Assembly: GCA_010356995.1 (NCBI GenBank)
Contig: ML996690.1
Location: forward strand, 1,210,217 to 1,274,216
Direction: 5' to 3'
Length of the DNA stretch: 64,000 bases
DNA from: Trichodelitschia bisporula
Taxonomy: Eukaryota
Positions within the stretch are counted from its first letter, which is position 1. Each line of letters opens with the position of its first letter. Below the pieces are notes generated by a model that ran no database searches, was not told where the DNA came from, and saw only the letters and a program-made list of their open reading frames with translations. Shown here piece after piece: positions 10,804 through 52,022 of the stretch. Both the position numbers and the translations under genes were made by a program.

Positions 10804-10869
10804 GACGTTGGAGGGCACATACCGCAGCTTCAATCTTTTGCATCGTACATGTCATCGAGCGTGTCGTGA

Positions 10870-33138: not shown

Positions 33139-33558
33139 GTCTGGCCCTGGTTCGCTGGTTGGGAAATTTTGGATGAGAGGGGTAACGGGGTCTGGTGTTT
33201 TTGGGTTGGGGTTTTGGGGGGGGGGATGGGTAGATGGGAAAAGTTAGGCTTGCTTTGCTTGCGCGGGGGTGAGGATATACGGTAGCAAGTCATACGTGAG
33301 ATGTACGGAGTACCGTACAGGTCAAATACTCCGAAGATCGACATCTGCATCTCAGCCTTCCGTCTACCGATCGACGTCACGTGCCTCTACCATCTTTCTT
33401 CCACGTCTTCTCGAAGCCGAGCTGATTCGCCAATCAGCGTCGATCTGCGCACGGACCCATTGCCAATCCGCCGACGCAGACCAGACCTCACCTCCAAAAA
33501 CTCCGCATCGCCAACTCCGCGTCGTTGCCGTTCACCACAACTGCCGCCCACCACAATC

Positions 33559-34491
33559 ATGGCAGTGCCTTCCCTACGCACAAGTATGACAACACCCTGC
33601 TTACGCACAACTCTGGCCCTGCGGCCTGCGGCTGTCCGTCCCGTCATGGCGGCCCAGCGCCGCTGGCATACCATCATCCCGCGCGACCAGTTGAGCAATC
33701 CGCCGGAGGGGATTCCGGTTACTTGGTTGAAGCGTAAGTCCTCCGTGCGTCTTCCCCATATACTTGCCCCATCCTCGCACGATTTCCTGACCTCTCACGA
33801 CTTCCTGACCGCCCACAACTTCCCTACCTCCCACGACTTCCCTACCTCCCACGACTTCCCCAGCCTTTCCAGGCAGCCTCCATCATTGACATGCATGCCG
33901 CTAACCCGGCGCAGCCCGCAAAAAGCTCTCCAAGATCTACGTGCACCCCCCTCCACGCAGCATGCCGAAGAAGTGCCCGGACCCAGTCGGCGTCGTTACG
34001 GCATCTCAGCTGGCTACATTGGATAGCAGTGGGGCACGCGCGCGGCTGTTCGACAAGGAGAATACTGAGGGTGTTCGGGTTGGAGATGTGTTGCACGTGC
34101 GGATGAGGGAGGGCGAGCCGGTGTCTGGGGTGTGTTTGAATATTCGCCGGAGGGGCGTGGAAACGGCTATCCTGCTCAGGAATCAGCTCACGCGTGTGGG
34201 CGTCGAGGTGTGGGTCAAGGTGTTCAGCCCGTTGGTGCAGAGTGTGGAGATTGTGCAGAGGAGGGTGAGACGGGCGAGGAGGGCGCGGTTGTATTACATG
34301 AGGTATGTGCGATGGACGTTTTGGGGGTGGGTGAGGGCTAACAGGGGTGCAGGCAACCGAAGCACGATATGGGCTCGGTGGAGGGTCTGGTGCGTACGTA
34401 CCTGCGCCAGCGCGCGGTGTTGGGGTCTGGGGGGAAGGGGGCGGCGGAGATGCTGGGGAAGAAGGGGAAGGGGAAGGGGAAGAAGAAGTAG
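33559..34491 (+). CDS. IMG1: Mitochondrial ribosomal protein bL19m (Img1-like; 2 introns)
   Basis: Arg-rich presequence; VGDVL..GVCLNIRRRG..TAILLRNQLTRVGVEVW.KVFSP..RRARRARLYYMR|QPKHD. Confidence 0.92.
33778..33860. repeat. 18-bp minisatellite (cacgacttccctacctcc), about 4.5 copies, inside bL19m intron 1
   Basis: Lies within intron 33734-33914 (GTAAGT..CTAAC..CAG). Confidence 0.85.
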
Positions 34492-34992
34492 GCGGCTGGT
34501 GGAGTGGATTCGGAGTAGGCTGGAAGGGGAGACGGCTCGAGGGCGAGGTATCGAGCTTTCGTTGGGGCATCACGACTTCAGTTCAATGGCCAATGGGGGC
34601 ATCGCTTCCAACCGAGTTCTCAATCGAGGGAGTCCCTTCCCCTCCAGTACCGAATTGGGACGGCATTTGCACGGCAACACTCACCTAGGCCGGCGTCCTT
34701 CCCCTTTCATGGACGGCAATCGTGCCCGCGCGGTAGTGATGGCTTAGAAGGGAGGTCGCTATGCAGCTCATTGTTGACAGTCCATAGAGAACATATAACA
34801 CCGCCTTCTTCCTCTCTCTTCACTTCTGCAAAAACCGATCCCCGTTCACTCGTAACAGATTTCTCTCTCGCCAACCAACATCCATTTGAGACTATCTCAC
34901 CACCATTGTTACGATCACTTTTTTACCGATTATTTACAATTCTTTCTTACTTTTACACACGCTTCACCACCACCACCGACCACCAGACAACG

Positions 34993-37900
34993 ATGCAGCA
35001 TCCACCCGCCGTCTCCACCGTAACAACGGTCGACATCGCGCAAAACTACACATTCATTTCCCGCCCCCCACCCGCTCGCCCCGGCCAGGCCATACCCCCC
35101 CCCACGCCCCCGCCCACGCGCACGCCCGTCCCATATCCAGCTAACCCCTTGGGCTGCAACCGACCGCCGCCATACCTGGTCGTGAAACACACCCCGCTCC
35201 CGCCGGATTGGGACAACAAACCACTGTTCGCCGATCCGCTGTACGCTGGGCCGCTTTTTGCCGATGCCGACGGGCGCCTCGGCCCGCCCCCCGCCCCGCA
35301 ATGTGAGCCCAGCACCCGCACCGCCCCGCTCGCCTTGCTCTTCCAAGTGGGCATCATGCTCTTGGCGGGCATTTGGTATTTGAGTCAGGGGCCCGGCCGG
35401 CGCTGGCAGCGACGGTTTGGGTACTTGGATGGGAGGATGAGGGGAGAGTGGGGTGTGGAATGGAGGGGTGTAGGCAAGGGGTGGAGACCGAGATTGGAGA
35501 CGATTGTGGAGAAGGGGGTGGGGGAGCAGGTGTACCCCACGCTCGACGAGGAGGAACGCGCTGCGCTCGCCTACACGGAGCTCGACCGGTCCACGCGCTC
35601 ACCCGCGCCTGAGCCGGAGACGGCCCCGCCTATGCCTGAGCTTGAGGTACGGAAGGTGAAGATGGACAGGATGAGCAAGTTGGAGGCGCGCAGGGGCAAG
35701 CGCGGTGCCCGCAAGTACAGCAATCCTCACGGGGGCCAGTACGGCCGCCTGGCCCGCGTTGCCGCGGGGAAGAAGAAGGGGGAAAAGACCGGACCTGCAC
35801 CTGGGATTGAGAGTGATGGGGAGCCATACCCGATGCCCCTGCCTACACCTGAGCCCCAGCCAGAGCTGCCTGCACCGAAGCCGGAGAAGAAAGGGCGGGG
35901 CAGGCGGGAGCGCCGTCGGTGGCGCGCGTTGGCGGCGGAGGATGTGGCGTTGCTTGCGACTGAGCATGGCGGGGTTTGGAATGAGCGGGAGAGGGATAGG
36001 CGGAGGGCGGTGGCGGCGGCGAAGAGGCGTGGCGATGTGGACGGAGGTGCGGGTGCGAGTACGCCTCTGCTTCAACCCGGCAATCGGCGTGAGGGTCTTA
36101 CCGAATCAGCACCGCAATATGTCTCTGGGACGGTGCCGGAGGGGTCGGCGTCCGGTTGGACAACTGTACCCCCGTCGCGCATCCTTCTAGTTTCTTTGCT
36201 AGCGCTCGCGCTCGCGCTCCCCGGCACTGGCGCTACGGTAATCTGTCCTGAACGTTACGTTTCGTCTTACTACCTGAGCACGTGTGCACCGTTCCCGTTT
36301 CCTGCCGGACCGTGCGCTATCCCGCCGACTCCACCACCATCACCCGCTACATGCTTCGTTCCTTACTCCCCGCCAGTTGCCGAACTATGCACCCGGACCC
36401 GCACGCCATGGACTGTCCCCGCGGAATGGCGCCCGAGACCAACATTCGAAACCCCCACGCCCCTCGCCCGCCGCGTGCTCGCTTCGCTAAGCCCGTACTT
36501 ACACATCACCGTGCGCGACTGCATCTGGCTCGCCTCCGCCATCTTCTTCCTGCTCTCCTGGGCCTGGCTTTGGAAATGGGGCACCGTGGCCCCGCCGCGC
36601 GGCCCGGTTACCTACGAGGAATGGCTAAGGGGTGAGGGGGAGCCGCGCCTGCGGCGGGTGGCTAACTACAAGGTTGTCGATGGGTTCCTGTGCGACGTCG
36701 CTGATTCCGAGGCCAACGAAGTTTCGACCCCAGACACCGCAGATGAACGCGAGGTTATGGGCGCTTTTTATCTCCCCCCCGATCACGACAGCTGGCCGGA
36801 TAGGAAACGCAGGCGGCGCCGGAGTGGCAAGCGGCGCCGGAGTAGCAGGACTGGACACTTCAAGATAAGTAGGGAGGAGAGGGAGGTGCGGGCTGGGGCG
36901 GAGAGGGACGAGGGGGGGGATGAGGTGGATGAAGAGGACTGTGATGTTCCCGTTGCCTCGGTTGAGGCCGAGGAGTTTGAACTCACGGAAGAGATTAAGC
37001 GGAAGTGGGATCGCTGGATGCGGAGCAGGCGAGGGGAGCGAGGGGTTATGGGTCAGGAGGGCCAAGCCGCTGTGGAACGAGAGGGGCAAGTCGCGGCGTT
37101 TCAAGTGGTACACGGCGAAGAGGTCCGAGTGGAAGAAACCGAAGCGCTCCGACTGGAAGAAGCCGAAGAAGTGTTCCGAGTGGAAGAAGCCGAAGCGTTC
37201 CGAGTGGAAGAAGCCGAAGAAGCGTTCCTAGTGGAAGAAGCCGAAGCCTTCCGAGTGGAAGAAGCCGAAGAAGCGGTCCGAGTGGAAGAAGCCNNNNNNN
37301 NNNNNNNNNNNNNNNNNNNNNNNNNNNNNNNNNNNNNNNNNNNNNNNNNNNNNNNNNNNNNNNNNNNNNNNNNNNNNNNNNNNNNNNNNNNNNNNNNNNN
37401 NNNAGTGGAAGAAGCCGAAGAAGCGTTCCTAGTGGAAGAAGCCGAAGCCTTCCGACTGGAAGAAGCCGAAGCGTTCCAAGTGCAAGAAGCCGAAGCCTTC
37501 CGAGTGGAACACGCGGAAGCGATCCAAGTGGTAACAGCCGAAGCGTTCCGAATGGTACAAGCCGAAGCGAATCGAATGGAGCAAGCTGAAGCGGACCGAG
37601 TGGAACAAGTCGAAGCGAATCGAGTGGAACAACTCGAAACGGCCGGTGTGGAAAAATCCGAAGCGGACCGAGAGGCCGCGGACCCCGTAAATTCTACCCA
37701 CGAGCTCACAGTGGGGGGCCTCGTTGGTGATAATCCTATTGAGTGGCAAAACTCCGCCATCACGCGTGACCAAGTGCGAGAATGGCATCTCGAAGGCGAT
37801 GCGGACGATTTTTGGCCCCCCTCACAGAGAAGGTGTTGGTGCAGCTATCAAGATGAGGCGCACGACGAGGTAGTCTGCGAGCAATATAAGACGATGCTTC

Positions 37901-40900
37901 GGCGCCGGCGCCGGTATTTGGCTAAGGCAGACCGCGAGGAGCGACGCAAGGGCCGTCGGCGAGCTGAGAGGCAAGCCGCGTCGAAGCGGTGGGCGAAAAA
38001 GATCAAGCGCCGGCGGGATGCCTGGGAGCTCAAAAAGTGGGAGCGTGGGCTGGGCTCTACGGAGCACTCCGGTGACTCGCGCGAGGAGCGACGCAGCTCT
38101 GACGTACACTATGCGTTCTTACTCAAGTACAGTGTCGCTACCGAGTTACGGTGTCGTCTCCAGGGACCGACGTCCAGTTACTCCCGCCTTTTTCTGTTTG
38201 GGTATCTGTATTGGGAGATGATGAACAAGGAAGACTTGGCGGGGTGGGTGGCAAGGGAGAGGGCGCAGGGCGAGAGTGGGGGCGCGAACGATTGGGTGGA
38301 ACCGCCGGAGGAGGTTCTTGGGTTGGAGGAAGGGGGCTTTGAGCGGATGAAAGAGATGGAGGGGAAGTTTAGGGACCTCAGGGAGTGGCGGAGGGAGTAT
38401 GCTGTGGAGGAAGAGAAGCTGCGCGGACCGTGGGAGATGGGCTATATGGCAGAGAGGTTCTGGCAAGAGGAGTGGGAGCAAGCTGAGATGGACCGGGCAT
38501 GGAATGATCTGAACAACCCTTTCGCGGTTCTTGCCGAGCTGTCCGGCACACCCACTAGCGACGACTCAAACACTACGGACCACGCCACCAGTCGACCGTA
38601 CGGCGCCTACTCCGCTCCGGCCTCCCTCGGCAAGCCTAACTTCGTCCCCCCACCCTGCCTCGCCTCCTCCCGGCCCGAGCCCCTTGCTAACTCCGTCGAC
38701 CTTCGCCCCCTCCCCCCGGTACCACCTTTCGTCAATACCCTCCTAGCCGAAGGGGAAATCACACCCTTCCTGCCCGTCGACCCCTGCCCAGCAGGCCCAC
38801 CTATCGACCCGGAACCCCGGCCGGGCGACACGATCTTCACCGTTAACGAGGAGTGCTACTCGCAGCCCCTCGAGCCCATAACAGACACCACGCCAGCCAC
38901 CGGCACGATCATGCCGCCGTTCCGCAAGATCGCGGACGTGGTCATCGCACTGCTCCGCACGATCCGTAATAGGGCCCACGGCCTCGTGAGCGTCGAGGTT
39001 AGGCCGGCGGATGAAACCGCCCCGTGGACGCCAGGCCCGCCCACGCCGCCGGAGCCATGGACGCCTCCGGAACGGCGCTCGGCGGCGGAGGCGCTGCGCC
39101 ATGCGGCGCGCAAGCCTGATGGGCCGGGAGAGGGGTCGTGTGTATGCTGTGTGCCGTGGAGATTGGGCCGGTGGAGGAGCGCGCGGAGGTCCACTGTGCC
39201 CGACGGGGGCGAGCGGGCCATGGAGATGACGACGTTTGCTGAGACGGTGCGGCAAGTGGATGGTGGCGGCGCCGCAGGTGGACAGCCGGATCCCATTGCC
39301 GAGGGTGAACAACCGAGCACCCATCCTGATCCGGACAACGAGACACATGCCAATTCGGAAAGCGATTCAGATCGGGGTTCGGACGACATCCCGTGGCTCC
39401 AGCATCCGACCCTACCGGCAATCGGAGAGGGGAGCGAGAACTCTGCGCCTGACGACGCCCCGGTACCGCGAGCCGCAGATCCCCCGCCGGCATCCACGCC
39501 GTTCTCGAACCTGGATATCGTCGAAGAAGCGAGTGAGCACTCCGAGCCTAGGGGCGGCGCTGCAGCGAAAGGTGCATACTCCCCACCAGCGTCCGCGTCA
39601 CGCTTCGTCTCGCTCCATGGATTCGTCCAGAGTGAGGACGGTACCTCCCTTTCACTCCACGGGACCGGAACTGGGGACCTGCCGCCGATAGAGGGCATCG
39701 AGGGCGCGCGGCCCAGTTCCGATGATATCCCGCCTCCGGGGCGCGGTCGCGGCAGTGGTCGGGCCGGCGAACCAGCTGCGCCGCCGGCTGGTACCGCGTC
39801 CGGTGGAGGACACCTGTTGATGGGCCCAGGGCCGGGGTACCGTGGCCGATACCGTGGTCGCAGCCGATACCGTGGTCGCGGCGGTAACCTTGGTCGAGGT
39901 GGAAACGCTCCTCCCGCTGGAAACGCTCCTCCCGCCGGACAAGAGCCTTCCCAAGCCGACCCGCCCTTTGAAGCCAACTCCGATGAAACCGCAGAGGAGG
40001 AGTTTGTGTCGACTGCTGATCCCTCGACTGCGGATCCTTCGCGGGCACAGGCTCCTCCGAGCCTCATTTTTCCGGAAATTCCGGCTCGGGGTCCTCCTGT
40101 GTGGGACTTTGTGGAGCCTTACATACCGTCCGCTGCGGATCCTCCAAGGGCATCAGCTGACGAGGCTGCGTCGGGAATGACTGATCCTTCGGGGGTGCCG
40201 GCTCCAAAGCTTTGGGAACCCCCAGCTGGAAAGACTTGGGGTGCGGTTGTTGTGGAGCATTTGGAAACGATAGCTGAATGTTCCTCGCCACCACCAGCAG
40301 CTCCACCTCCAGCTGCAGCTCCACCACCAGCTGCAGTCCCATCAACAGCTACAGTTCCAGCACCAGCTACAGTTCCAGCACCAGCTACAGTTCTAGTACC
40401 AGCTACAGTTTCAGCACCAGCTACACTCTTGCCACCAGATGTATTCCCACCACTAGAACTAGCTACAGTCTCACCACCAGCTGTTGCCCCAGCACCAGCT
40501 ACAGTCCCGGCACCAGCCGCGGTCCCAGCATCAGCTACAGTTCCAGCATCAGCTACAGTCCCATCACCAGCTGTCGTCCCATCACCAGCTACCGTCCTCC
40601 CACCAGCTGCAGTCCTCCCATCAGCTGCAGTCCCCCCACCAGCGGCAGTCCCCCCACCAGCTGAAGTCCCAGCACCGGCTGCAGTCCCAGAACTAGCTGC
40701 AGTCCCAGCACTAGCTGTAGCCTCAACACCAACTGCAGTCCCGGTACCAGCTACAGTCCCGGCACCAGCTGCAGCACCAGCCGCAGTCCCAGCACTGGCT
40801 GCAGTCCCACCACCGGCTACAATCAAGCGCAAGACGTATAGCGGGAGGAAAAAGCGGAAACTGAAGGCGGAGCTGTCAGAAGATGAAAAAAATGCATGGG

Positions 40901-43900
40901 AAACGATGGTTAGCGACGCACGCCTGGAGAACCGCTTCTTGAAAGAGAAGGTACAGGAATACCCCGACCGTCACTTTAGGGAGGCGATTGACCAGGCGTT
41001 GGATCGTCCTCCAAAAGAGACGATGTCAGGCACAACCGACCGATCAACCTGGGTGAAAATCCCGTACAACCCGGAGGCCGCAGGGCGTCAGACACGGCGA
41101 TCACATATACCACTGCAAATGCCAAAGTTACCAACTGGCCCCGAACTGGCAGAATTTATTCTTGAGCGTGTCAAAAAGTCCAATCCCTCTTATTTCTTCA
41201 AACTGCGGATGAAGGGTTCCTCTGAGGACACCGAAGACTGGCTTTCCTTCGATAGCGAAATTCTCACTGTGGCGCGCATCACATTCTGCCGTTCACTTGT
41301 GTGGACTGTCGGTACCCGAGATGCAACGCAGCCCAGGGACGGCGATGCAGGGGACGAGCAGCAAGCAGCAACGCAGCAACAAGGAAAATCGATCGAGCCG
41401 CCAGACATGTGGAGTCTAAGGCAAAACTTTGCGGCGGAGAGCCAAAGTGATGTACCGCTACAGCTGGTGAACTTGCTGATTATCACGTTCCGTCACCCGC
41501 CAAAGCCCGTTTTGCTCACGAACGAGGGGCAACTGTCAATCACTCTGGCGCTTCCTCGTCAGACACATTCCGTAACCAGTCTTCCAACCCCAGGCCCTCG
41601 AATGCCACAAACCGACGAAGAGAGGGCGACGGGAATTCTTCACGCGTTGGATTGGGATGTCTATGAGCCCCCAATATTTTCAACAATCGTCACCAACGGC
41701 GCTCATCCCAAAGCATTCTGTATTACTTACAAAGGTGATGGGCATCTCAAGCTTGAGACTACGCTTCATCCTATGCAAGCACTCAAAAAAGGAGACGAGG
41801 AAGGCAAAGCTGACCACAAAGCCTTGTCTGGGGCGCCTAGAGTCATGAAATTAGTATGCGCAGCATTCCGAAGCAAAACTGCGCCCATCATTGAAAACCC
41901 GAACGGTTCCTTCAGCGTCGCGCTCCCGATTCCCGGCAAAGATTTCGACGACGAGAAGATCAAGGCAATGCGTCGTTCCTTGAAAGCAGCGGGGGGTATT
42001 GACCAGCCAGGCGCGCCTCAGCCCAGCGACGACTACATTGCGGAAATGTTGTTACGGCAACTGGGGTTGCAGGGTGAGAAGCGGGAGCGATTTCTCAAGC
42101 GACTCCGGTATCAATGGCCGGACGGCAAGTTTCAAGCAGTAACGGTGCTCTCTTTGCCGAAGGACAAGATGACCATTGAATACCGTTATATATCCGCAGA
42201 CGGCACTGAGCAGTCGAGCTCCGATGAGGCCTCAGAGTCTTCAGAGGAATCAAGCGAATCGCGTTCCGAGGAGCCTCCTCGGCCCGCCGTCCTCCCCGCC
42301 TCCAAGCCGAAAACCAAACGTGCACCCAAGCCGGCCCGGAGTAGCACGGTGGAAGAGTCGGCCCGCAGTTCAGGATCGCCAGTCCCCGAGGCGCCCGCGC
42401 CTCCATTCTCTCAGCTGCCGCCCTCAGCTGCTCCCGTGCCGGTACCCGTCCCAGAGGGCTCATCTTCCCCGCCATTGTGGTTCGACCCAACTCGCAAGCT
42501 GCCCGGCCAGTCTCGAAAGCTGCCCGACCAGTCTAGCAAGCTGCCCAGCCAGTCTCGCAAGCTGCCCGGCAAGTCCAGCAAAAAATCGTGGCCCCCCAAA
42601 GCTCCCAAGCCATCACAGCCCGCCCAATCTCCGACCCCTCACCCAGCTCCAGCGGCGCCCACGCCTGCGTTTGCCCCGGTTCCCGTACTTGTCCCGATGG
42701 GCCCCCCTCCCACACCGGCGCGGCCCGCCCGACCTCCGACTCCACCACGACCTCCCCGGTATCCGGCCCCGCAGCCAGAGCCAGGGGTGCCTACGCCCTC
42801 AGACGCACCCGCGCCTGCATCTGTCATATTTGCCTCTACTTGGTGTCTGGGATTGCTTGCGGCAGTGCAGTCGGACGACGGTTCAGAACCGCAAGACTCT
42901 GTGGCATCTGTGCCCCAGGTCTCTCAGCCGCAACCCTCGGTCGCCCCCGTACCCGCACCCGTCCCGCAGCCAGCGCCAGCGGTGCTCGTGCCTGCACCTG
43001 ACGTGTCTGGGTCTCCTCAGCCTCCGGAAAGGCTTTCGGCGCAGGTGGAAACGACTGACGCGGAGACGTCCCAGGCTCTCGCAGGGGACTTGAACCAGTA
43101 TGTCTTCGTGACGGCGGCAGTTTACAGAGCAATTCAGGCCCGGATCGACGTCAACCATACTGTAGCCGGTACTAAGGAGCGCCGCGTGGCCATGAATAAC
43201 CTGACGCACGAACTCGCCGAATGCAAGAGATACCTGGACGAGCTGACAGGGGAAGATGAGGCGTGGCTCAAAAATTTCAGGACAATACTGGCAACTGATT
43301 TTCAGCAAGCCTTGCCGGCTAGCCCCGGCGAGGGTCATACGCGGGTGGGCACGGCTCACGGAGAGTCTTCCGCATCCTCGGTCCGCCAAGCAGCGGTTAA
43401 CGCGTTTTCACAAGCAATCGAAGCGCTTCTCAAAGTCAAGAGTGCTGGGGCCGATCCTGAGACGCTCCTTAGGAAGGGGCCCGCACTGGTGGCACATCGC
43501 CCGTGGTTAAGTGAGGAAGAGGCAACGGGTTTCGAAAGGTTGTTGGTGAACATGGAAACGAAAATATGGCTGGCCTCGTACAGTGGTGCTCAAGCAGACA
43601 CAGCTGATGTGGCATCACTCTCAGCACTGGATCGTGCAGGGCGACAGGCGCTTGCGGCAATAGACTACGTGTCCTTCCATTTTGACATTGCTAGTCATGC
43701 CTATTTCGAAACGAAGTGGAACGCCCTGGCGAGCAAAGAACTCGTGCTAAAGACGCGGAATGAGAGGTTGGGAGCGAAATGGGCAGCGTTAGCCGAAGAA
43801 GAAAATGAGGCTTTGGAAACGGGGGATGATTTGGTGATCCCCTTGAAAAATCGCGAGCTGAAGCAAGCAAGGGACGCGCTACGGGCGGAGTTCGTATCAC

Positions 43901-46900
43901 TGGACGGGCAGCTCGCGAAAGTGGAAACGGAAATAGAAGCGTTGGCCGAAAAAGTCCAGACGATGGAAGACAAATTGCTACCGGCTGCGCAAACCGCTTC
44001 CGGCGAGAGTGATGCGCGAGTGGACACGGCTAACACGGGGCCGTCCGAAAGCTCGGTTACAGCCGCGCCTGTCGGAGCGGGATCGCCTGCAAGCTCGGTT
44101 CAAGGCGCGCTGAAGGTTGGTGGAAAAGCCGAGCCTGCCGCTCTCATTCCGGCCTCGTCGCCGGCTCTCTCAGCGCGAGTGGTGCTTTTCGAAGCAATCA
44201 AGGCCCGTCTCGAACTGGAGCGTACTGCGCTCGATTCCGAGAAGCTCCACGTGACCAAGGCCAAGCTGAAGGCCGAAGTCGCTGCGGCACAGGCGTACCG
44301 CCCGGCGTTAACTGTGCAAGAACAGAGGGTGTTTGACGAATTCAAAGGGGCCCTGGGAACGAGATCAAGGCTAGCCTTGCCAGCTAGGCCCGACGATAGG
44401 GATATGACTAAAGCGGAGCTTTCTGCGCACCTGGCTCATCACATAGCGCAAATGGCGCTTTGGGAGGCATTCGTGGCGATTGTCCAAGTCGAGCGTGCTG
44501 CGGCCGACCCTGCGGCGCTCGAATCGAAAATTTCCGCGCTGCGACCCATAGCAGCCACGCTAAAGGAACACTTCCCGGTACTGACTGAGGCAGAGAAAAC
44601 GTGGTACCTCGAAGCTGAGGGGGACGTGAGAAAGATAAGGTGGCTGGCGGCCCCGATACCCGACGATGGTGATACACGGATTGACACGGCCAACACGACG
44701 TCTTCCGCACCCTTGGCTCGTGCAGCAGCGAAAAGGGCCCTTTCCGAAGTATTTGAGGCGGCTCTCGAATTGAAGAGTACCCCGGCCGATGATCAGACGC
44801 TCCAGGTGAAGAATGCCGTGTTGTCTCTCAAATTTACTGCACTCCTGGCACACAAAGCGTCGCTGAGTCAGGCAGAACTGGAGCCACTCTTCAAACTCTT
44901 GACGGAATTGGATAAGAGCATAATGATGGGCCCGCACACTGTGCCTGACCGGGGTGATACACAGGTGGGTACGGCCAACGCCGGGCCGTCCGCAAGCTCG
45001 GCTACAGCCGTGGCGGAGGTAGGTGGCGGAGCTGAGCCCACCACTCTAGTTCCGGCCTCGTCGTCTGGGCCCGCCCAGGTCTCAGTGCCTACGGAGCCCT
45101 CCTCTACCGTCGCCCCGGCGCAAGAGGGAGTACAGGCCATGCTGGAAGAGGGCGCGCGGTCGGCCACGGCTGATGCGCGGCTATTGTCAGAACATGTTCG
45201 TGTGGAACGAGAGGGGCTTGACGCAGTGAAAGAGGCGCATCGTGAATTGGACCTTGTTGATGCTACCGATTATGTGATGCGCGGCGAGAAGCGGCACCCG
45301 TGGGATCTCGCACTGAGGCGCCAAAAGTCCACGCTAGAAGCTCACTCTGCGACGCTGAACGCGAAATTAGCGGCGTTGGTCGACGAAGAAAAGAGCCTTA
45401 CGACTGTGGATAATCTTACCGTGCGCCGTGCGATGGAGGGCATGCTGAAGCTCAAAAAGACTGTCGCAGAGGCGGAGCACGCGTCACTGAACGCGAAGTT
45501 CTCGCAGCTGGATGTGGAATTATCGTCGTACCAAAAAGAAGTACAGACGTCAATGAAAATGATAGAGACGTCAATGGGAAAGATAGAGACGTCAATGGAA
45601 AAGATAGCGGCTCAGCTCATCACTAACCAAGAGGGTGATATGCGGGTCGAAAAGGCCAAGGGAGGACGGTCCGCCGGCCCGGTTCACGCAGCACCGGAAA
45701 CACCCGACGAAGCCGAGCCTGCTGCAGTGGCACGGCCCGACACGGGACTCTCAACCGGCGCGGCTCACGCAGCACCGAAGATGCACGGTGGGAAGAAGCG
45801 CAGCCACTACGACAGACTCCTCACGAAGCGCGCGAGGGTGAAGGAGGAAGTCGCGGTGCTCTTCAAAGAACTCTGGATGGTCGCGGACCGGGAACAACTG
45901 CAGGAGGCACTCCGTGAGCTGCTCGATGCACTCTGGGCAGACAGGGCGAAAAGAATTTCGCCGGCCATACAGATAAAGTGCAACAAGGGTGACACGCGGG
46001 CGCCTACGGCTGACACAAGGGTTTGGCGTGACCTCAATCGCAAAGTGCTGAAGTTATTTTCTAGCAAAATGGTCAAGTTGTTTTCTAGCAAAGTGGCCAA
46101 GTCAGGTCGCATCGCCGAGATTACTATATTGAAACCAGCCGCGCACGCCGCAGTAGACGACGGCGATACCCGAGCCGAAACAACGGATGCGGGATCGTGT
46201 GTAGATCCGGTTCACGTAACACTAAAACTGCGGAGCGAAGCCGAGTCCACTGCATCGGCACCAGAATCGGTTAATGTGGAATCGCCCGCAAACCCCTTAC
46301 AAGCACTGCCGACGACGCGTGACGATGCCGAGCATACTGCTTCGGCGGGTGTTGAAACACACCCCGTGACGAAGCGCGATCTGGCTCGCCAAGTCAAATG
46401 GCTCGTGGCGAGGCACAAGGACTTCAAGGCGAAACTTGCGGAGATTCGAGGCGATGTTGTGCTATACGAGAACGATGACCCGGACGAAACGATCGGCGCG
46501 GGGCTTATTACGAAAATGGTTCACGGGGGCCTCACCATGAACCAGATTCACGCATCACTGGATGAAGCCGAGTCTGCTGCTGCGGCGCCGGTCTCGCAGC
46601 CCACGCCACATGTGCGCGACACCCGGACCGAAACGCCCGACACGGGGCCTATTGTGGACCTGATTGATAGACTTCTGGAGTTACTCAACGACGTCGAGAC
46701 TACTGCAGTCGGACCGACTGCGCAGGCCGCACAAGACGAGAGTGATGCGCAGGCCGCACAAGCCGAGGGTGATACGCCGGCTAAGACGACTGACGCAGAA
46801 CCATCCGCAGTCCCCGTTCACGCAGCGTCGGAGCCCCGTGGCGACGCCAAGCCTACTTCAGTGGGACAGTCCGCAAGCCCGATCCACGCAGCGCTGCAGA

Positions 46901-49317
46901 GGCGTGGCTGCGCTGAGCCAGCTACTGCGGCATCAACCGGTGTAGGACCGTCCACAGAACCATTTCAAAGAACGCCGGAGGAGGTGCATGTCGCAACCTT
47001 GCTTAGGCTAGCGGCACTGGATCTCGCTGGATGGCCCAAACCCCCGGTTTACGCCGCACCGGAGACACATGGTGAAGTCGAGCCTGCTGCTGCGGCACCG
47101 GAAACGGCCGACACGGGAATGTCCGCAGCGCCGGTTGCCCCAGTTCCCGAGAAGTCTGTCGAAGCCGAGCCTACTGCCGCCCCGCGCTCGCAATCCACGT
47201 CAGACGAAACCGAGCCTGCTGTTGCGGCCCCGGAAACGGCCGACTCGGGACCGTCCACAGAACCGGTTCAAAAAACGCCGGAGGAGGTGCGTGTTGCAGC
47301 CCAGTTTACTCTAGAGGCACTGGAATTCGCTGGATGGTTTGATGTCCCGATTCACGCAGCACCGGAGACACGTGGTCAAGCCGAGCCAACTGCTACGGCC
47401 CCGGAAACGGCCGACTCGGGACCGTCCGCAGCCCCGGTCCAAGCCGCGCCGGAGACACGCAGTGAAGCCGAGCCTGCTGCCGCGGCACCAAAAACAGCGG
47501 ACGCGGGATTGGCCGCAGGCCCGGCGCACTTCACGTCAGGGCCGCGTGACGCAATCGAGCTTCCTGCAGCGGCACCGACCGACGCTGAACCGGCGTCAAA
47601 TCCAGGGGGTGCGGCTCTCCTACAATCGATCCTCAATAGCGCTGCCCGCAACATTCCGCACAGCTTCTTGGCGGCTTTGCGACCAGCCGCCGCTGAGCCT
47701 ACAACCGCACCACAGATCTCGCGGTTCTCGGCTATACGGCCCGCGCCTCCGATAGACGCACCTCATGTTCCCTCACCCTCGCGCCACGGTGTCTTGAGCC
47801 CCGCAGTGCAGTCCCTTGTCGCCTCTATAAGCCAACCCGGATCGCAGGCTACGCGAGGGAAGACAATGCAGCGAGCGGACGCAGCTACTGCGGTGCCATT
47901 CGGAGGCCCAGTTCAAGCAGTCCCGGAGACGCGTGACGAAGTCGTGTTGGAGAAGCATGGTGAAACCGTGCCGGAGACGCCGGGCGAAGTCGTGCCTGAG
48001 ACCCAGGGCGAAGTCGTGCCGGAGACGTATGGCGAGGTCGTGCCCGAGACTCGTAGCGAAGCCGTTCCGGAGACCCGTGGGGAACCCGTGCCGGAGACCC
48101 GTAGCGAAGCAGTCCCGGAGACGCGTGGTGAGACCGTGCCTGAGACACGCGGCGAAACCCTGCCGGAGACGCGTGGCGAAGTCGTGCCGGAGACGCGTGG
48201 GGAAGCCGTCCCGGTGACGCGTGCCGAAGCAGTGCCGGAGACGCGTGGAGAAGCCGTCCCGGAGACGCGTGCCGAAGCCGTGCCGGAGACCCGTAGCGAA
48301 GTTGTGCCGGACACCCTTGGCGAAACTGTACCGGAGACCCGAGGCGAAACTATGCCGGAGACCCGAGGCCAACCCGTGCCGAAAATATATGGCGAACCCG
48401 TGCCGGAGACACTTGGCGAAGCCGAGCCTGCGACTGCGACACCAGAAACAGCGGACACTGGACCTTCCGCCGCCCCGATGTCCTCAGCGCCAATGCCGCG
48501 TGACGAAATCGAGCTTCCCGCAGCAGCACCGACCGACGCCGGACCGGAGGTAATCTCCTGGGATGATCCCTTCTGGGATACTTTGGAACCAGCTGCCGAG
48601 GAGCCTGCACCCGCGTCCCGGCCCCCGCCGCCGCCCCCGCCGTCTCCCCCGCTCCCCGAGCGGCTCACGTCCCCGCGGCAAGCGTCTCCGATATCCACAC
48701 CTCGTGTCCCTTCAAAACTGCGTCACGTGGCCTTCAGCCCTGAAGCGCAGGCACATGCCGCCGTTACAGACCAAATCCCAGCGCAGGCTGCGCTGATTCG
48801 GGGCAAGAGAAAGCAGCGAGCAGACACAGCTGCCGAGGTGCCGGCTGCAGAAACACCAAACTCACAGGCGGCGCCAACCGAAGTCGAGTCTGCTGGGCCG
48901 GGCCCGGAAGCGGCCACCGCGTGGCAGTTTACAGACCCAGCTCAAGCGCCAGAGCCGAATGGCGGAGTCAAGTTACCTGTAGAGGCGCCAGCCTCGCAGG
49001 CTATGCCAACCGACGTCGAGCGTCTTGCATCGGTCTCCACGCGACCCCCGGGTATGCGGTCAGCGCCCCCGCCAGCCCCACCGAAGTCGGCATATCACCG
49101 ATCGCTTGTCCCGCCAAAGCCGAAACACCTCGTTACCCCTGGGCCCCCTCCACCCCCGCCGAAGTCGGCACAACTCCGCCCGGTCGTACCACCGAAGCCG
49201 AAAGAGCTTCGCCCTCTCACCCCCCCGCGAGACCCACTGAAGCCGAAAGGGCCTCACCCTCCCTCTTCCCCACGAAACCCACCCAAGCCGGCAAGGTTCA
49301 GGCCCCCGAGCTCGTAG
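34993..49317 (+). CDS. Giant (~4,770 aa) apparently intronless orphan protein with N-terminal hydrophobic segments, tandem peptide repeats, helical repeats and coiled coils
   Basis: 14.3 kb without a stop codon; first ATG at 34993. All internal tandem repeats have unit lengths divisible by 3. No family recognised. Continuity across the N gap is assumed. Confidence 0.75.
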   Translation: MQHPPAVSTVTTVDIAQNYTFISRPPPARPGQAIPPPTPPPTRTPVPYPANPLGCNRPPPYLVVKHTPLPPDWDNKPLFADPLYAGPLFADADGRLGPPPAPQCEPSTRTAPLALLFQVGIMLLAGIWYLSQGPGRRWQRRFGYLDGRMRGEWGVEWRGVGKGWRPRLETIVEKGVGEQVYPTLDEEERAALAYTELDRSTRSPAPEPETAPPMPELEVRKVKMDRMSKLEARRGKRGARKYSNPHGGQYGRLARVAAGKKKGEKTGPAPGIESDGEPYPMPLPTPEPQPELPAPKPEKKGRGRRERRRWRALAAEDVALLATEHGGVWNERERDRRRAVAAAKRRGDVDGGAGASTPLLQPGNRREGLTESAPQYVSGTVPEGSASGWTTVPPSRILLVSLLALALALPGTGATVICPERYVSSYYLSTCAPFPFPAGPCAIPPTPPPSPATCFVPYSPPVAELCTRTRTPWTVPAEWRPRPTFETPTPLARRVLASLSPYLHITVRDCIWLASAIFFLLSWAWLWKWGTVAPPRGPVTYEEWLRGEGEPRLRRVANYKVVDGFLCDVADSEANEVSTPDTADEREVMGAFYLPPDHDSWPDRKRRRRRSGKRRRSSRTGHFKISREEREVRAGAERDEGGDEVDEEDCDVPVASVEAEEFELTEEIKRKWDRWMRSRRGERGVMGQEGQAAVEREGQVAAFQVVHGEEVRVEETEALRLEEAEEVFRVEEAEAFRVEEAEEAFLVEEAEAFRVEEAEEAVRVEEAXXXXXXXXXXXXXXXXXXXXXXXXXXXXXXXXXXXXXVEEAEEAFLVEEAEAFRLEEAEAFQVQEAEAFRVEHAEAIQVVTAEAFRMVQAEANRMEQAEADRVEQVEANRVEQLETAGVEKSEADREAADPVNSTHELTVGGLVGDNPIEWQNSAITRDQVREWHLEGDADDFWPPSQRRCWCSYQDEAHDEVVCEQYKTMLRRRRRYLAKADREERRKGRRRAERQAASKRWAKKIKRRRDAWELKKWERGLGSTEHSGDSREERRSSDVHYAFLLKYSVATELRCRLQGPTSSYSRLFLFGYLYWEMMNKEDLAGWVARERAQGESGGANDWVEPPEEVLGLEEGGFERMKEMEGKFRDLREWRREYAVEEEKLRGPWEMGYMAERFWQEEWEQAEMDRAWNDLNNPFAVLAELSGTPTSDDSNTTDHATSRPYGAYSAPASLGKPNFVPPPCLASSRPEPLANSVDLRPLPPVPPFVNTLLAEGEITPFLPVDPCPAGPPIDPEPRPGDTIFTVNEECYSQPLEPITDTTPATGTIMPPFRKIADVVIALLRTIRNRAHGLVSVEVRPADETAPWTPGPPTPPEPWTPPERRSAAEALRHAARKPDGPGEGSCVCCVPWRLGRWRSARRSTVPDGGERAMEMTTFAETVRQVDGGGAAGGQPDPIAEGEQPSTHPDPDNETHANSESDSDRGSDDIPWLQHPTLPAIGEGSENSAPDDAPVPRAADPPPASTPFSNLDIVEEASEHSEPRGGAAAKGAYSPPASASRFVSLHGFVQSEDGTSLSLHGTGTGDLPPIEGIEGARPSSDDIPPPGRGRGSGRAGEPAAPPAGTASGGGHLLMGPGPGYRGRYRGRSRYRGRGGNLGRGGNAPPAGNAPPAGQEPSQADPPFEANSDETAEEEFVSTADPSTADPSRAQAPPSLIFPEIPARGPPVWDFVEPYIPSAADPPRASADEAASGMTDPSGVPAPKLWEPPAGKTWGAVVVEHLETIAECSSPPPAAPPPAAAPPPAAVPSTATVPAPATVPAPATVLVPATVSAPATLLPPDVFPPLELATVSPPAVAPAPATVPAPAAVPASATVPASATVPSPAVVPSPATVLPPAAVLPSAAVPPPAAVPPPAEVPAPAAVPELAAVPALAVASTPTAVPVPATVPAPAAAPAAVPALAAVPPPATIKRKTYSGRKKRKLKAELSEDEKNAWETMVSDARLENRFLKEKVQEYPDRHFREAIDQALDRPPKETMSGTTDRSTWVKIPYNPEAAGRQTRRSHIPLQMPKLPTGPELAEFILERVKKSNPSYFFKLRMKGSSEDTEDWLSFDSEILTVARITFCRSLVWTVGTRDATQPRDGDAGDEQQAATQQQGKSIEPPDMWSLRQNFAAESQSDVPLQLVNLLIITFRHPPKPVLLTNEGQLSITLALPRQTHSVTSLPTPGPRMPQTDEERATGILHALDWDVYEPPIFSTIVTNGAHPKAFCITYKGDGHLKLETTLHPMQALKKGDEEGKADHKALSGAPRVMKLVCAAFRSKTAPIIENPNGSFSVALPIPGKDFDDEKIKAMRRSLKAAGGIDQPGAPQPSDDYIAEMLLRQLGLQGEKRERFLKRLRYQWPDGKFQAVTVLSLPKDKMTIEYRYISADGTEQSSSDEASESSEESSESRSEEPPRPAVLPASKPKTKRAPKPARSSTVEESARSSGSPVPEAPAPPFSQLPPSAAPVPVPVPEGSSSPPLWFDPTRKLPGQSRKLPDQSSKLPSQSRKLPGKSSKKSWPPKAPKPSQPAQSPTPHPAPAAPTPAFAPVPVLVPMGPPPTPARPARPPTPPRPPRYPAPQPEPGVPTPSDAPAPASVIFASTWCLGLLAAVQSDDGSEPQDSVASVPQVSQPQPSVAPVPAPVPQPAPAVLVPAPDVSGSPQPPERLSAQVETTDAETSQALAGDLNQYVFVTAAVYRAIQARIDVNHTVAGTKERRVAMNNLTHELAECKRYLDELTGEDEAWLKNFRTILATDFQQALPASPGEGHTRVGTAHGESSASSVRQAAVNAFSQAIEALLKVKSAGADPETLLRKGPALVAHRPWLSEEEATGFERLLVNMETKIWLASYSGAQADTADVASLSALDRAGRQALAAIDYVSFHFDIASHAYFETKWNALASKELVLKTRNERLGAKWAALAEEENEALETGDDLVIPLKNRELKQARDALRAEFVSLDGQLAKVETEIEALAEKVQTMEDKLLPAAQTASGESDARVDTANTGPSESSVTAAPVGAGSPASSVQGALKVGGKAEPAALIPASSPALSARVVLFEAIKARLELERTALDSEKLHVTKAKLKAEVAAAQAYRPALTVQEQRVFDEFKGALGTRSRLALPARPDDRDMTKAELSAHLAHHIAQMALWEAFVAIVQVERAAADPAALESKISALRPIAATLKEHFPVLTEAEKTWYLEAEGDVRKIRWLAAPIPDDGDTRIDTANTTSSAPLARAAAKRALSEVFEAALELKSTPADDQTLQVKNAVLSLKFTALLAHKASLSQAELEPLFKLLTELDKSIMMGPHTVPDRGDTQVGTANAGPSASSATAVAEVGGGAEPTTLVPASSSGPAQVSVPTEPSSTVAPAQEGVQAMLEEGARSATADARLLSEHVRVEREGLDAVKEAHRELDLVDATDYVMRGEKRHPWDLALRRQKSTLEAHSATLNAKLAALVDEEKSLTTVDNLTVRRAMEGMLKLKKTVAEAEHASLNAKFSQLDVELSSYQKEVQTSMKMIETSMGKIETSMEKIAAQLITNQEGDMRVEKAKGGRSAGPVHAAPETPDEAEPAAVARPDTGLSTGAAHAAPKMHGGKKRSHYDRLLTKRARVKEEVAVLFKELWMVADREQLQEALRELLDALWADRAKRISPAIQIKCNKGDTRAPTADTRVWRDLNRKVLKLFSSKMVKLFSSKVAKSGRIAEITILKPAAHAAVDDGDTRAETTDAGSCVDPVHVTLKLRSEAESTASAPESVNVESPANPLQALPTTRDDAEHTASAGVETHPVTKRDLARQVKWLVARHKDFKAKLAEIRGDVVLYENDDPDETIGAGLITKMVHGGLTMNQIHASLDEAESAAAAPVSQPTPHVRDTRTETPDTGPIVDLIDRLLELLNDVETTAVGPTAQAAQDESDAQAAQAEGDTPAKTTDAEPSAVPVHAASEPRGDAKPTSVGQSASPIHAALQRRGCAEPATAASTGVGPSTEPFQRTPEEVHVATLLRLAALDLAGWPKPPVYAAPETHGEVEPAAAAPETADTGMSAAPVAPVPEKSVEAEPTAAPRSQSTSDETEPAVAAPETADSGPSTEPVQKTPEEVRVAAQFTLEALEFAGWFDVPIHAAPETRGQAEPTATAPETADSGPSAAPVQAAPETRSEAEPAAAAPKTADAGLAAGPAHFTSGPRDAIELPAAAPTDAEPASNPGGAALLQSILNSAARNIPHSFLAALRPAAAEPTTAPQISRFSAIRPAPPIDAPHVPSPSRHGVLSPAVQSLVASISQPGSQATRGKTMQRADAATAVPFGGPVQAVPETRDEVVLEKHGETVPETPGEVVPETQGEVVPETYGEVVPETRSEAVPETRGEPVPETRSEAVPETRGETVPETRGETLPETRGEVVPETRGEAVPVTRAEAVPETRGEAVPETRAEAVPETRSEVVPDTLGETVPETRGETMPETRGQPVPKIYGEPVPETLGEAEPATATPETADTGPSAAPMSSAPMPRDEIELPAAAPTDAGPEVISWDDPFWDTLEPAAEEPAPASRPPPPPPPSPPLPERLTSPRQASPISTPRVPSKLRHVAFSPEAQAHAAVTDQIPAQAALIRGKRKQRADTAAEVPAAETPNSQAAPTEVESAGPGPEAATAWQFTDPAQAPEPNGGVKLPVEAPASQAMPTDVERLASVSTRPPGMRSAPPPAPPKSAYHRSLVPPKPKHLVTPGPPPPPPKSAQLRPVVPPKPKELRPLTPPRDPLKPKGPHPPSSPRNPPKPARFRPPSS
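37120..37640 (+). repeat. Coding tandem repeat VEEAE(E)AFR (24/27-bp units) spanning an assembly gap
   Basis: The same unit, in the same frame, is seen on both sides of the N run. Confidence 0.9.
37294..37403. other. Assembly gap (run of N)
   Basis: 110 N bases; true length unknown. Confidence 0.99.
40290..40820 (+). repeat. Coding 18-bp repeat encoding (A/P)PA(T/A)VP hexapeptides
   Basis: caccagctacagttccag-type units repeated over about 530 bp. Confidence 0.9.
47920..48425 (+). repeat. Coding 24-bp repeat encoding VPETRGE(A/V/T), about 20 copies
   Basis: gtgccggagacgcgtggcgaagcc-type units. Confidence 0.92.
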
Positions 49318-50229
49318 TTCATGTGCCGGACTGGCTTCCGCTTTCGCTGGCGGCCTTGTTTTTGGCGCCGCTTCTGATCCTGGATTTGGCTTTGTACTTG
49401 CTGGAGTTCGTGCGGGCGATTTTGTCGGATGGGATGTCTGAGTGATGGCGTTATGGTGGTAGTTTTTTGAAGCTGTGTGTGGTAGGATTTTGCATTTTTT
49501 GGGGGGTTTTTTGGCTGAACTTTTGGTTTGTGTCTGTATTACTGATGTCTATTGTTGCAACGGGTTGTACATTATGATATGGATTGGTTCTTTCGCTTGA
49601 AATCTCTACGCTTGTTGCATTTTGTCTTCTCTCATGAAGTGCGGGATGAGGTGTACGTTGTCGTGGTCGCGTACGTGAAGCTAACTGTCAGGGAACCCGA
49701 GTTGGCGGATGGTTGAGCTGCACCCCTTAAGCTAGTTGGAGAAAGTAATGACCGCCATGAGCAGCTAACCCGCAGCGCGAAGCGGCCAGAACTTTTCGTA
49801 TCGGCCCCCGCACGGTACCTGCGCCATTCGCAGCGCCGATCAGATCTTGCATCACACTTCGATCTGCATTCCGTCACCGGCCCAGTGACCAGCAGAAACT
49901 CTCTTCCAACCTCCGCGCGCTTTGCATCGGCTTGCAAAGGACGTTTCATACTATGACGTACCCAAACCCCCCCATCCAGCCCCCCGCACAGCCGAGGCTG
50001 AACAGGGCACCGCAAGGCTGGGCGTGCGCCACTGACGTCGTCGCACGGGCCGGGCCGATTCCAGATCGGCAGCCTGACAAGGCGAGATATCGGGCGAGAC
50101 CAATTGCGTAGTTTGTCTCACTTTTTGGCGGGGGTGGGTAAATAGCGCGTCGTGCCTGCGTGGAGATGGTGCAACTCTAACCTTATCCTCACTTCACGAG
50201 TAGTCAAGCATCACGGCTTCACCTTCACC

Positions 50230-52022
50230 ATGTCAGACACGCAGCAGCGCGCAGTTGAGAACCCACAGCAGCCCACAGTCGCGAATACGCAGGAAGATGT
50301 ACCTTTCGTGCCCTTCACGGCGCTGGAGCCTCACCTGCAACGCTTGCACGATGTTAGCATCGAGGTGCGCCCCCATTCCCACATCCAGTCTCAACCCACT
50401 AACGCACGCAGTACATCCTCAGCATCTATCCCAAAATCTCCACCCGGCAAGCCTCAAACAAAACCTGGGGCGACGAGCTAGAATCCCAAATCGTAACCTT
50501 CAACCCCACCACCAAAACCGCCCTCCCCACCCCCATCCAAACCCACCTCCTCCAAACCCTCCCCTCCTCCTCCGCCGACCCCTCCGTCGCCGAACCAGTC
50601 TACCACCCCGAATTCGCAAAATACATGATCGAATCCACGCCCCCAACACCCTACACCATACTCCCCGCCTCCCTCCTCTCGGTAGAGGAATGCCTGCACT
50701 CCCGCCGCGCCACAATCCAATACAAGCTCCAAACGAACGAACAAGTGCTTAACCTCTCCCTCCACCCGCGCATCGGCGCCGACCTGCTAGCCGCACAACT
50801 CTCCCCCCCGGGCTCCCCCGCCTCTTCTTCCTCCACCTCAACTAGCCAGGCCCAATCCGCCCTCGACACGCTCATATCACCCGCGCCTTACACCGTCGCC
50901 CACGCCAGCATAACCGCGCGCCACCACCACACCCCCTCCATCAGCATCACCCCCTTCACAGATACCCACACGTCCCTTCCCCCCACCCTCACCCTACCAC
51001 ATATCCTCCCCGGACCCGGCGCGTGCGGCCTCCAAGCGACGTTTCAATGCGCCTCGCTCGGCCAGGCTAGGGCGCTGCACGATAGCCTCACGATCGTAGC
51101 CCCCGTGCTGCTGGCGCTCAGCGCGGCGACGCCCATCTACGCGGGCGTGCTCGTGGATACGGATGCGCGCTTCGCAAGGACGGGCATGGCGGTGGATGAT
51201 CGTGCGCCTGGCGAAGGAGTCGCAGCGCGGTGGGGCGTGCCGGGGATGTATCTCGCTGACGCGCCCATGGAAGATGAGACGCGGTACTTAGACCCCGGGC
51301 ACAGGCTTGGGGAGACGTATGTCGGGCGGCTTGAGGAGGCGGGGATGGACGGCGTGATGGCGCGGTATTTCGCTGCGATGCATGGGCGGGATCCGTTGTA
51401 TGTGCGCGGGGAGGAAGCAGAGGGACTGAGCGGCGAGGCGGTGTTCCGGAGTTTGTGCGGGAGTGATTGGTCCGCCGTGAGGATGAAGATACCTGAGCCA
51501 CAGGGGGCGGGGGGATGGAGGGTTGAGGTGAGGGTCATGGAGGTGCAGATGCGGGATTGGGAGAATGCGGGGCTGTTGGTGTTCGTCGCATTGTTGACGC
51601 GGGTTTTGATGAAGCAGGGGCTGGATTTGGCGATCCCGCTGCCGCAGGTGAGGGAGAATATGCGCCGGGCGCAGCGCCGGGATGCAGTACGCAGTGAGCG
51701 GTTTTGGTGGAGTGGTGGGAGGGACGGGGTTAGGGAATTGGGCATAAGGGAGATTGTGCTTGGAGGAGAGGGGTGGGTGGGTTTACTCCCGCTTGTGCGT
51801 GGGTATTTGGATGAGGAGCGGGTGGAGGGTGAGGAGCGTGCGCACTTGGAGCGTTATTTGGATTTTATTGGGCGGAGGGCGAGTGGGGACGAGAAGACTG
51901 CGGCGCGGTGGATCCGCAACTTTGTACAGGCGCATCCCGGGTACAAGGGGGATTCGCTTGTGAGCGATGAGGTGTGCTTTGATCTGCTGAGGGCGATGGC
52001 GGAGGCGGAAAAGGCCGGGTAA
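50230..52022 (+). CDS. Divergent glutamate-cysteine ligase catalytic-subunit homologue (1 intron)
   Basis: TWGDELE, YHPEFAKYMIESTP, LQATFQ, LLALSAATPIY..DTDARF, GWRVEVRVMEVQ..DWENA, RRASG..TAARWIRNFV.AHP.YK.DS.VS. Confidence 0.88.

Follow-up and report, generated by a model that had tools for sequence, protein, structure and literature searches.

The closest described counterparts of the gene reported here are the giant fungal protein Leashin (Lah), the nesprin/KASH proteins and the septal-pore SPA/SPP proteins. Leashin/Lah is a tether located at the Woronin body and septal pore; its ends are conserved across Pezizomycotina, with a WSC-binding region at the N terminus, a highly acidic, PELS-rich linker, and a C-terminal transmembrane segment and a 219-aa extracellular domain (PMC2690989, PMC5345055); the transmembrane segment of Lah lies about 240 aa from the C terminus (PMC5345055), and Neurospora Leashin carries a net charge of -1088 over 10,821 aa, or about -0.10 per residue (PMC2690989). 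KASH proteins have an in-frame C-terminal transmembrane segment and a luminal peptide of about 30-35 aa ending in poly-proline (PMC2733748). The SPA/SPP proteins are disordered with an R/H bias and accumulate at septa, and the SPP proteins named in the source are all below 1,300 aa, with orthologues throughout Pezizomycotina (PMC10023807). Chimeric retro-sequences are described in Magnaporthe, in which template jumps joined pieces of unlinked cellular genes on one strand (PMC2104539). Here we analyzed a 64,000-nucleotide window of the Trichodelitschia bisporula genome (assembly GCA_010356995.1, contig ML996690.1, forward-strand positions 1,210,217 to 1,274,216) that contains a giant intron-free open reading frame (ORF). 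All coordinates below are those of the window, and aa numbers are residues of the predicted protein.

The ORF occupies 34993-49317 on the forward strand, from the ATG at 34993 to the TAG at 49315-49317 (14,325 nt, 4,774 codons), and contains no internal stop, against 143 stops expected from base composition; the remaining five frames have 77 to 165 stops. This bears out a preliminary description, made from the letters alone, of a 14.3-kb frame open for about 4,770 codons. A 110-N assembly gap (37294-37403) touches 37 of the 4,774 codons, and the 4,737 readable codons are all free of stops. The stop-to-stop frame opens at 34519, the stretch upstream of the ATG scores as non-coding (dicodon score -0.51), and 34993 is the sole ATG within 34823-34995. 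We also scored all six frames with a dicodon model built from 40 long frames of the same genome. The ORF frame came out on top in 20 of 24 windows, and the other four windows are tandem arrays. The predicted product is about 510 kDa overall (about 508 kDa without the gap, isoelectric point 5.3). Long intron-free frames are not rare in T. bisporula: the 430 kb of genome sampled held others of 2139, 1582, 1525 and 1450 codons, none of them reaching half of the ORF. We consider it very probable that the ORF is a real coding gene. A look-up by exact match found none of three candidate products while a neighbour control was found, and the protein searches able to retrieve the product had no record of it, so that the gene may be missing from the annotation; no publication on it was found in a literature search that mostly lacked subscription papers.

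We then analyzed four sequencing runs (X1 to X4) that contain the stretch, aligned to 32500-52400; none is recorded as RNA. GT..AG joints were present at four neighbour introns (47, 181, 50 and 47 nt) in X1 and X4 and at none in the DNA runs X2 and X3, and X1 and X4 therefore behave as RNA. The same joints confirmed the earlier remark that the neighbouring genes have short introns. X1 and X4 come from one sample of one study and consist of contigs only, which give neither strand nor ends and break at repeats. The X1 contigs cover 35073-36899, 37426-47254 and 47398-49564, and no joint, substitution or indel is listed for them within the ORF. The ORF is thus likely transcribed, possibly as a single full-length message. 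X1 depth, by bin arithmetic, was about zero at 49565-50185 and 34823-35072. Genuine transcription would leave the first of these empty, but a break between contigs is no proof and both RNA runs come from one study, so we did not count it as evidence. A loose end of X1 at 48866 was considered as a splice acceptor and rejected: the contig joins the ORF to a gene on another contig (C8:63090) through an exact shared 18-mer with no splice donor, and it is a template-switch or assembly chimera.

The features of the locus are given below. Hydropathy is expressed as Kyte-Doolittle (KD) values; dN/dS and pN/pS are ratios of nonsynonymous to synonymous change, with confidence intervals abbreviated CI.

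34803-34992, +: CT-rich, ATG-free leader from the MRPL19 3' end to the start codon, a putative promoter
34993-49317, +: giant intron-free ORF, from frame analysis and RNA-run contigs without internal joints
35329-35385, +: hydrophobic segment 1, aa 113-131 (KD 1.95; the next 20 aa hold 6 K/R)
36181-36237, +: hydrophobic segment 2, aa 397-415, signal-peptide-like (KD 2.02)
36238-36522, +: Cys-rich loop, aa 416-510, 6 Cys, probably luminal by the predicted topology
36523-36582, +: hydrophobic/aromatic segment 3, about aa 511-530 (KD 1.63, window from aa 503)
37116-37672, +: acidic VEEAEAFR array (24/27-nt units) that encloses the 110-N gap
37673-37798, +: captured in-frame fragment, about aa 894-935, from the 5' coding end of a DH_2/PH_23/PH_24 gene
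37834-38560, +: CxC..H..C motif, basic helix and Trp-rich helical block, with no family match
39830-39905, +: RG/RY tract
40298-40818, +: PATVP 18-nt array (dN/dS about 1.0)
40828-42207, +: non-repetitive, probably folded block, aa 1946-2405
42491-42575, +: SRKLP 21-nt array inside a Pro/Ser-rich linker
43096-44949, +: five copies of a three-helix unit of about 85 aa (starts 43096, 43372, 44155, 44428, 44704)
43582-45555, +: two copies of a coiled-coil module of about 130 aa, aa 2864-2991 and 3386-3521 (E 1e-7)
46915-47460, +: younger tandem duplication of about 100 aa and recurrent PETADSGPSAAP linkers
47915-48428, +: PETRGE 24-nt array, about 21 copies (pN/pS 0.40, CI 0.28-0.56)
49108-49308, +: terminal PPKP repeats, class II PxxPxK/R-like
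49303-49445, +: C5 run plus a coding-like tail in the -1 frame, comprising a hydrophobic helix of 19 aa at nt 49347 and a short end; a possible C-terminal anchor, lost or alternative

Every part named in the preliminary description lies where it had been placed, with one reservation: its "alpha/beta modules" found no confirmation, as the single-sequence fold of aa 1956-2406 failed (predicted local distance difference test score, pLDDT, 34). A suspected two-copy alpha/beta repeat proved marginal (score 46, shuffle maximum 47).

The ORF contains arrays of 18-, 21-, 24- and 24/27-nt units together with larger duplications of the helical units, the coiled-coil modules, the pair of about 100 aa and the linkers. 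In a frame-blind DNA self-alignment, the offset was divisible by 3 at 48 of 49 match starts and at all 49 match ends, so the observation that the repeat units keep frame held. Serial internal duplication, proposed earlier as the way in which the gene grew, was likewise supported, but not as the whole account, since at least one block was captured from an unlinked gene instead.

The captured block is the 42-codon fragment at 37673-37798 (ORF codons 894-935). It is a 126-nt ungapped match, 69% identical, to the beginning of the coding sequence in an unlinked DH-PH-EVH1 gene (C21:491237-497496; DH_2/PH_23/PH_24, PF24340, PF24344, PF24345). Strand and reading frame agree between the two, and the genome-scaled E is 9.5e-5. 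No comparable match was found in 400 kb of other own-genome DNA, where only simple repeats fell below E 1, as they did for the reversed ORF. Of the 20 residues identical between fragment and donor, 14 use the same codon. Aligned with the own-genome donor the fragment scores 107, and with four orthologues 39-53; a profile of five family members matches only ORF aa 900-935, and the same profile minus the donor matches nothing. The R-D-K-V-R-K-W motif at the donor N terminus is ancestral in the family (Tothia, Venturia and two metagenome proteins). The DH, PH and EVH1-like domains are absent from the ORF in a Pfam scan, and no other part of the donor aligns, so that the ORF is not a paralogue of the donor. 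Since the own-genome donor is also far closer than the orthologues, the ORF is the recipient. We are confident that the fragment was captured in frame from an unlinked gene, and sequence comparison places the capture later than the origin of the donor's lineage-specific form (dS about 0.56; pN/pS 0.75, CI 0.45-1.36). A short GCGGACC word, common to the left junction and the decaying repeat, hints at microhomology-mediated switching. This capture is a feature of the gene that goes beyond the earlier reading.

A second, older capture is possible: the tail of a small membrane gene on C20 (C20:139961-140128) resembles ORF aa 1398-1463 with a protein score of 91 (shuffles 31+-5), at a DNA score that is not significant and a genome-scaled E of about 22. 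Weak candidates on C19, C6, C8 and C4 lacked DNA support, and matches of the PETRGE array elsewhere proved to be compositional matches in other repeat tracts. Further donors may exist, because the own-genome search assigns scores to a small number of candidates and, in DNA mode, failed to recover the confirmed donor itself.

To the question of what selection preserves in this gene, the duplicated copies gave two kinds of answer. pN/pS was 1.01-1.09 for three helical-module pairs, 0.81 for the coiled-coil pair, 1.02 for PATVP and 0.85 (CI 0.75-0.97) for the pooled larger duplications, and the constrained parts were the PETRGE array and two short linker pairs (0.40 and 0.45). These values were measured between internal copies in one species rather than between species, and the protein-guided alignment of copies biases pN/pS downward. 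In a neutral simulation, 12-18 stops (minimum 4) were expected in the 1,028 codons of dated duplications, and none was observed. The 268 codons of the helix cores included 3 Pro, where drift would give 9-11 (P 0.002-0.008), and Gly was also depleted. The helical modules thus diverge at dN/dS near 1 yet stay open, which shows that selection keeps frame, length and helicity more than sequence. The coding selection claimed in the preliminary description accordingly holds for the purging of stops; between internal copies, frame and helix propensity are kept more than amino-acid identity.

The predicted protein begins with the three hydrophobic segments. The loop after segment 1 has 265 aa, 20% K/R and no Cys, and the loop after segment 2 has 95 aa and 6 Cys. 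Hydropathy suggests a three-pass membrane anchor with a luminal disulfide loop and a cytoplasmic arm of about 4,240 residues. By composition indices, about 1,900 residues lie in Pro/Ala-rich segments, which we estimate would measure about 0.7 micrometre if fully extended (0.36 nm per residue). Seven of the 15 class II PxxPx[KR] matches fall within the last 85 residues. The PPKP ends had been called SH3-ligand-like, a likeness that holds at the level of the motif; by motif-level guesses of the same kind, the Cys/His residues (C948-x-C950..H957..C962) may bind zinc and the RG/RY tract may bind RNA.

The unit of about 85 aa is predicted as three helices (mean pLDDT 74). Its structure matches were the Not3/Not5 N terminus (Z 9.3), a desmoplakin spectrin fragment (Z 8.6) and SNARE Habc (Z about 8), with Z at most 9.9, and Foldseek returned no match at E<=0.001. 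The desmoplakin fragment (root mean square deviation 2.5, 77 residues aligned) was near-tied with unrelated bundles, and Spectrin_6 appeared at E 0.26 in one of the five units. The models point to a generic three-helix bundle. The module of about 130 aa gave no more than weak coiled-coil Pfam matches.

No homologue was found in any collection searched, as the term orphan in the preliminary description had implied. In a word-based search of a collection of 5.8 billion proteins, the 3,970 aa after the gap had no match at E<=0.001 among 1,763 scored near-length candidates (2,183-6,948 aa), and aa 1944-2404 had none among 7,998 candidates from shorter proteins of the same collection. A phmmer search of aa 2687-3556 against 1.84 billion representatives was blank, as were two tries at the ESM Atlas, whose recognition was low. 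No curated Pfam cut-off was reached, the best E among PDB sequences was 0.22, and a metagenome scan of 115 stretches confirmed none. Residues 1-767 were compared with Pfam, PDB and the own genome, and with no large eukaryote-containing collection. The ORF is single copy in own-genome comparisons, and three distant loci found by MRPL19 synteny did not resemble it. Orphan genes are usually short.

We tentatively favor, with confidence just short of an even balance, a membrane-anchored spacer or tether/scaffold in which length and flexibility matter above exact sequence. A single lineage-specific coding gene would produce a protein anchored in a membrane by its three N-terminal hydrophobic segments; its cytoplasmic arm would consist of acidic and Pro/Ala-rich repeats alternating with three-helix bundles and coiled coils, with proline-rich docking motifs at the end; and the gene would have grown by in-frame tandem and segmental duplication plus the capture of at least one gene fragment. 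Translation as one chain, membrane topology and a tether role are all inferred. Residues that drift almost freely while frame and helices are kept form the pattern expected of a spacer.

Several points weigh against this reading. Function, localisation and translation are predicted from sequence, and the transmembrane calls from hydropathy. No listed contig spans 37228-37426 or 47255-47397, nor the first 80 nt of the ORF. Both RNA runs are contigs of one sample, with neither strand nor ends, and DNA carry-over is conceivable. Only one species was available for comparison. The values for the helical pairs and PATVP would also suit positive selection or a weak function. The Pro test has some circularity, the helical modules having been preselected, and the structure matches of the three-helix unit are generic.

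A rapidly evolving protein of recognition or conflict (non-self, sexual stage or antagonism), with helical modules diversified by positive selection, is an unlikely but serious alternative. It would account for a pN/pS of about 1 in folded modules despite the downward-biased alignment, for the orphan status and for a membrane anchor with a modular cytoplasmic arm; however, Pfam scans found no NACHT, NB-ARC, HET, TPR, WD40 or other receptor domain, the ORF is single copy, and no module pair is significantly above 1 in pN/pS.

It is also rather unlikely that only part of the protein matters, such as the N-terminal membrane part or the C-terminal end, the rest being tolerated bulk that stays open since any stop would remove the required end or provoke decay. 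The near-neutral amino-acid divergence fits this, as do the differing residues (BLOSUM -0.65, neutral simulation -0.63 to -0.77) and a codon adaptation of 0.64, below most long frames (median 0.73). The shortage of Pro and Gly in helix cores and the purifying selection on PETRGE speak against it, and 4,774 residues would be costly to make.

Two or more adjacent genes sharing one frame, or a misjoin in the gap, are very unlikely. The gap is unsequenced and bridged by no listed contig, and close to aa 1205 the silent sites switch sharply from G-rich to C-rich (4 G, 25 C), which resembles the beginning of a gene in this genome. However, the gap is enclosed by the VEEAEAFR array, whose unit and phase agree on its two edges, and its 110 nt equal a whole number of 24/27-nt units plus a partial unit; since the units are 24 or 27 nt long, any whole number of them keeps the frame. 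The gap could still hide a stop, but there is no stop or intergenic stretch anywhere in the readable frame, one X1 contig (37426-47254) runs across the skew switch, and comparable resets occur inside KAT11 and the asparaginase gene.

A domesticated or decayed transposon or viral polyprotein is highly improbable. The very long intron-free frame and the host fragment would suit it, as Pack-type elements can carry captured host fragments. Pfam scans, however, found no transposase, reverse transcriptase, helicase or capsid family; there is no second copy in the genome; the ORF itself lacks inverted repeats (the flanks, with any terminal repeats or target-site duplications, lie outside this check); TpA/ApT is 0.69 in the ORF as in the rest of the window, with no signature of repeat-induced point mutation; and ordinary genes flank the ORF. 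An unrecognisably diverged Leashin/Lah orthologue, despite the similar size class, repeat-rich acidic stretches and coiled coils, is scarcely credible given the lack of a match among the 1,763 scored candidates (a size range that larger Lah proteins exceed), the lack of an in-frame transmembrane segment near the C terminus and a net charge of -0.03 per residue.

A coding-like hydrophobic tail past the stop is the second feature that the earlier reading did not contain. An overlapping frame (48744-49445), one base out of frame (-1) relative to the ORF, passes the stop into a 19-residue hydrophobic helix (KD 2.43, nt 49347) and a short end. The 135 nt past the stop have a strong 3-base periodicity (chi-square 26): 2,000 shuffles never attained it, whereas 5 of 86 sequences flanking other long frames did. 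Its hydrophobicity was reached in 0 of 86 flanks but in 6% of shuffles, and its dicodon score in 17 of 86 flanks. The last PPKP unit of the main frame stays in register with the earlier units, so any frame change falls after it, at the C5 run (49303-49307), where all four runs agree with the reference. We found no canonical slippery heptamer near the tail, no unusual fold downstream of the site (z -0.3 to -0.9), and no branch site for any candidate frame-switching intron, and the tail occurs nowhere else in the genome. That the tail is a former or minor C-terminal anchor is plausible, though we doubt it somewhat more than we believe it. A two-ended tether of about half a megadalton, built from self-duplications and pieces of other genes, whose C-terminal anchor still arises in some of the molecules from one-base slippage at C5 or was lost by a single recent deletion, is improbable; if true, a Leashin- or nesprin-like machine would have been re-invented anew in one fungal lineage and caught while changing.

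The genome has 25.8 Mb in 44 contigs, and the neighbours of the ORF are ordinary filamentous-ascomycete genes: KAT11, a cellobiose dehydrogenase (CDH) cytochrome gene, AA9, CoaE, GH18, LysM, asparaginase, NmrA, MRPL19 directly upstream, a glutamate-cysteine-ligase-family gene downstream, PfkB and IMPACT. The first intron of MRPL19 (33733-33915, 181 nt) holds an 18-nt tandem repeat, and its RNA contig (34351-34822) ends at 34822, 170 nt before the ORF start. MRPL19 and KAT11 lie 33 kb apart here and 7 kb apart in a distant fungal contig, a loose retained linkage. The glutamate-cysteine-ligase-family gene (50230-52142, E 1.7e-85) has a 47-nt intron confirmed by the RNA runs, and its stop lies within a tandem duplication of 68 nt. 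At 17868-23400 a chitin-binding GH18 chitinase lies head-to-head with a LysM gene, the layout of fungal subgroup C chitinase clusters, and at 8141-11329 the CDH cytochrome-domain gene lies beside the AA9 lytic polysaccharide monooxygenase gene as a possible redox pair. A probable secreted protein at 59790-60665 consists of RE-rich repeats, in which a KR site separates two blocks, and resembles Kex2-processed repeat proteins. At 52380-53500 and 60907-61650 there are F-box-like pieces that appear to be related, together with a local DNA repeat; some look broken, and X2 has a loose end at 52302. Many genes of the window run from C-rich at the 5' end to G-rich at the 3' end even at fourfold silent sites (GC skew, GCS, -0.94 to +0.74), and the skew of the ORF resets near aa 1205 (38200-38900). 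As a sign of gene fusion this skew is ambiguous, with similar resets in KAT11 and the asparaginase gene.

The history of the gene can still be read in its repeats, which differ in age, in a datable fragment of a conserved signalling gene and in the off-frame tail. The gene offers a concrete case for asking whether giant tethers arise anew, and whether fragment capture in this fungus feeds functional proteins and not only non-coding patchworks. The Magnaporthe chimeras are described as retropseudogenes, whereas here the fragment is in frame and the frame is still under selection. With the DH_2/PH_23/PH_24 protein the ORF shares the 42-codon fragment including the R-D-K-V-R-K-W motif, and nothing else aligns.

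Like the SPA/SPP proteins, the ORF protein is lineage-restricted and probably largely disordered, with Pro-rich regions; unlike SPP proteins, it is far above 1,300 aa and has no orthologues in the collections searched. With the nesprin/KASH giants (PMC2733748, PMC3296292) it shares a long rod of three-helix repeats, although its units are candidate spectrin repeats only and it has no actin-binding domain. The hydrophobic C-terminal helix is in frame in those giants and only off-frame (-1) here, with an off-frame tail of about 13 aa and no poly-proline. With Leashin/Lah it has in common that it is a giant fungal protein with a poorly conserved repeat-rich middle, coiled coils, a membrane anchor and a plausible role as an elastic tether. 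The preliminary description had rightly noted the lack of recognisable homology to Leashin, with no match in the near-length protein search, but its analogy to Leashin failed on the C-terminal transmembrane segment and extracellular domain and on charge. In contrast to Lah, the hydrophobic segments are N-terminal, no 19-aa window reaches KD>=1.3 after aa 3070, and the C terminus is basic and Pro-rich; net charge is -138 over 4,737 aa, PELS residues account for 35%, and only local arrays are acidic. As the C-terminal segment, charge and conservation all differ, the ORF is not a member of the Leashin family. By sequence, the protein is neither a Leashin nor a KASH protein, and it may work like such tethers.

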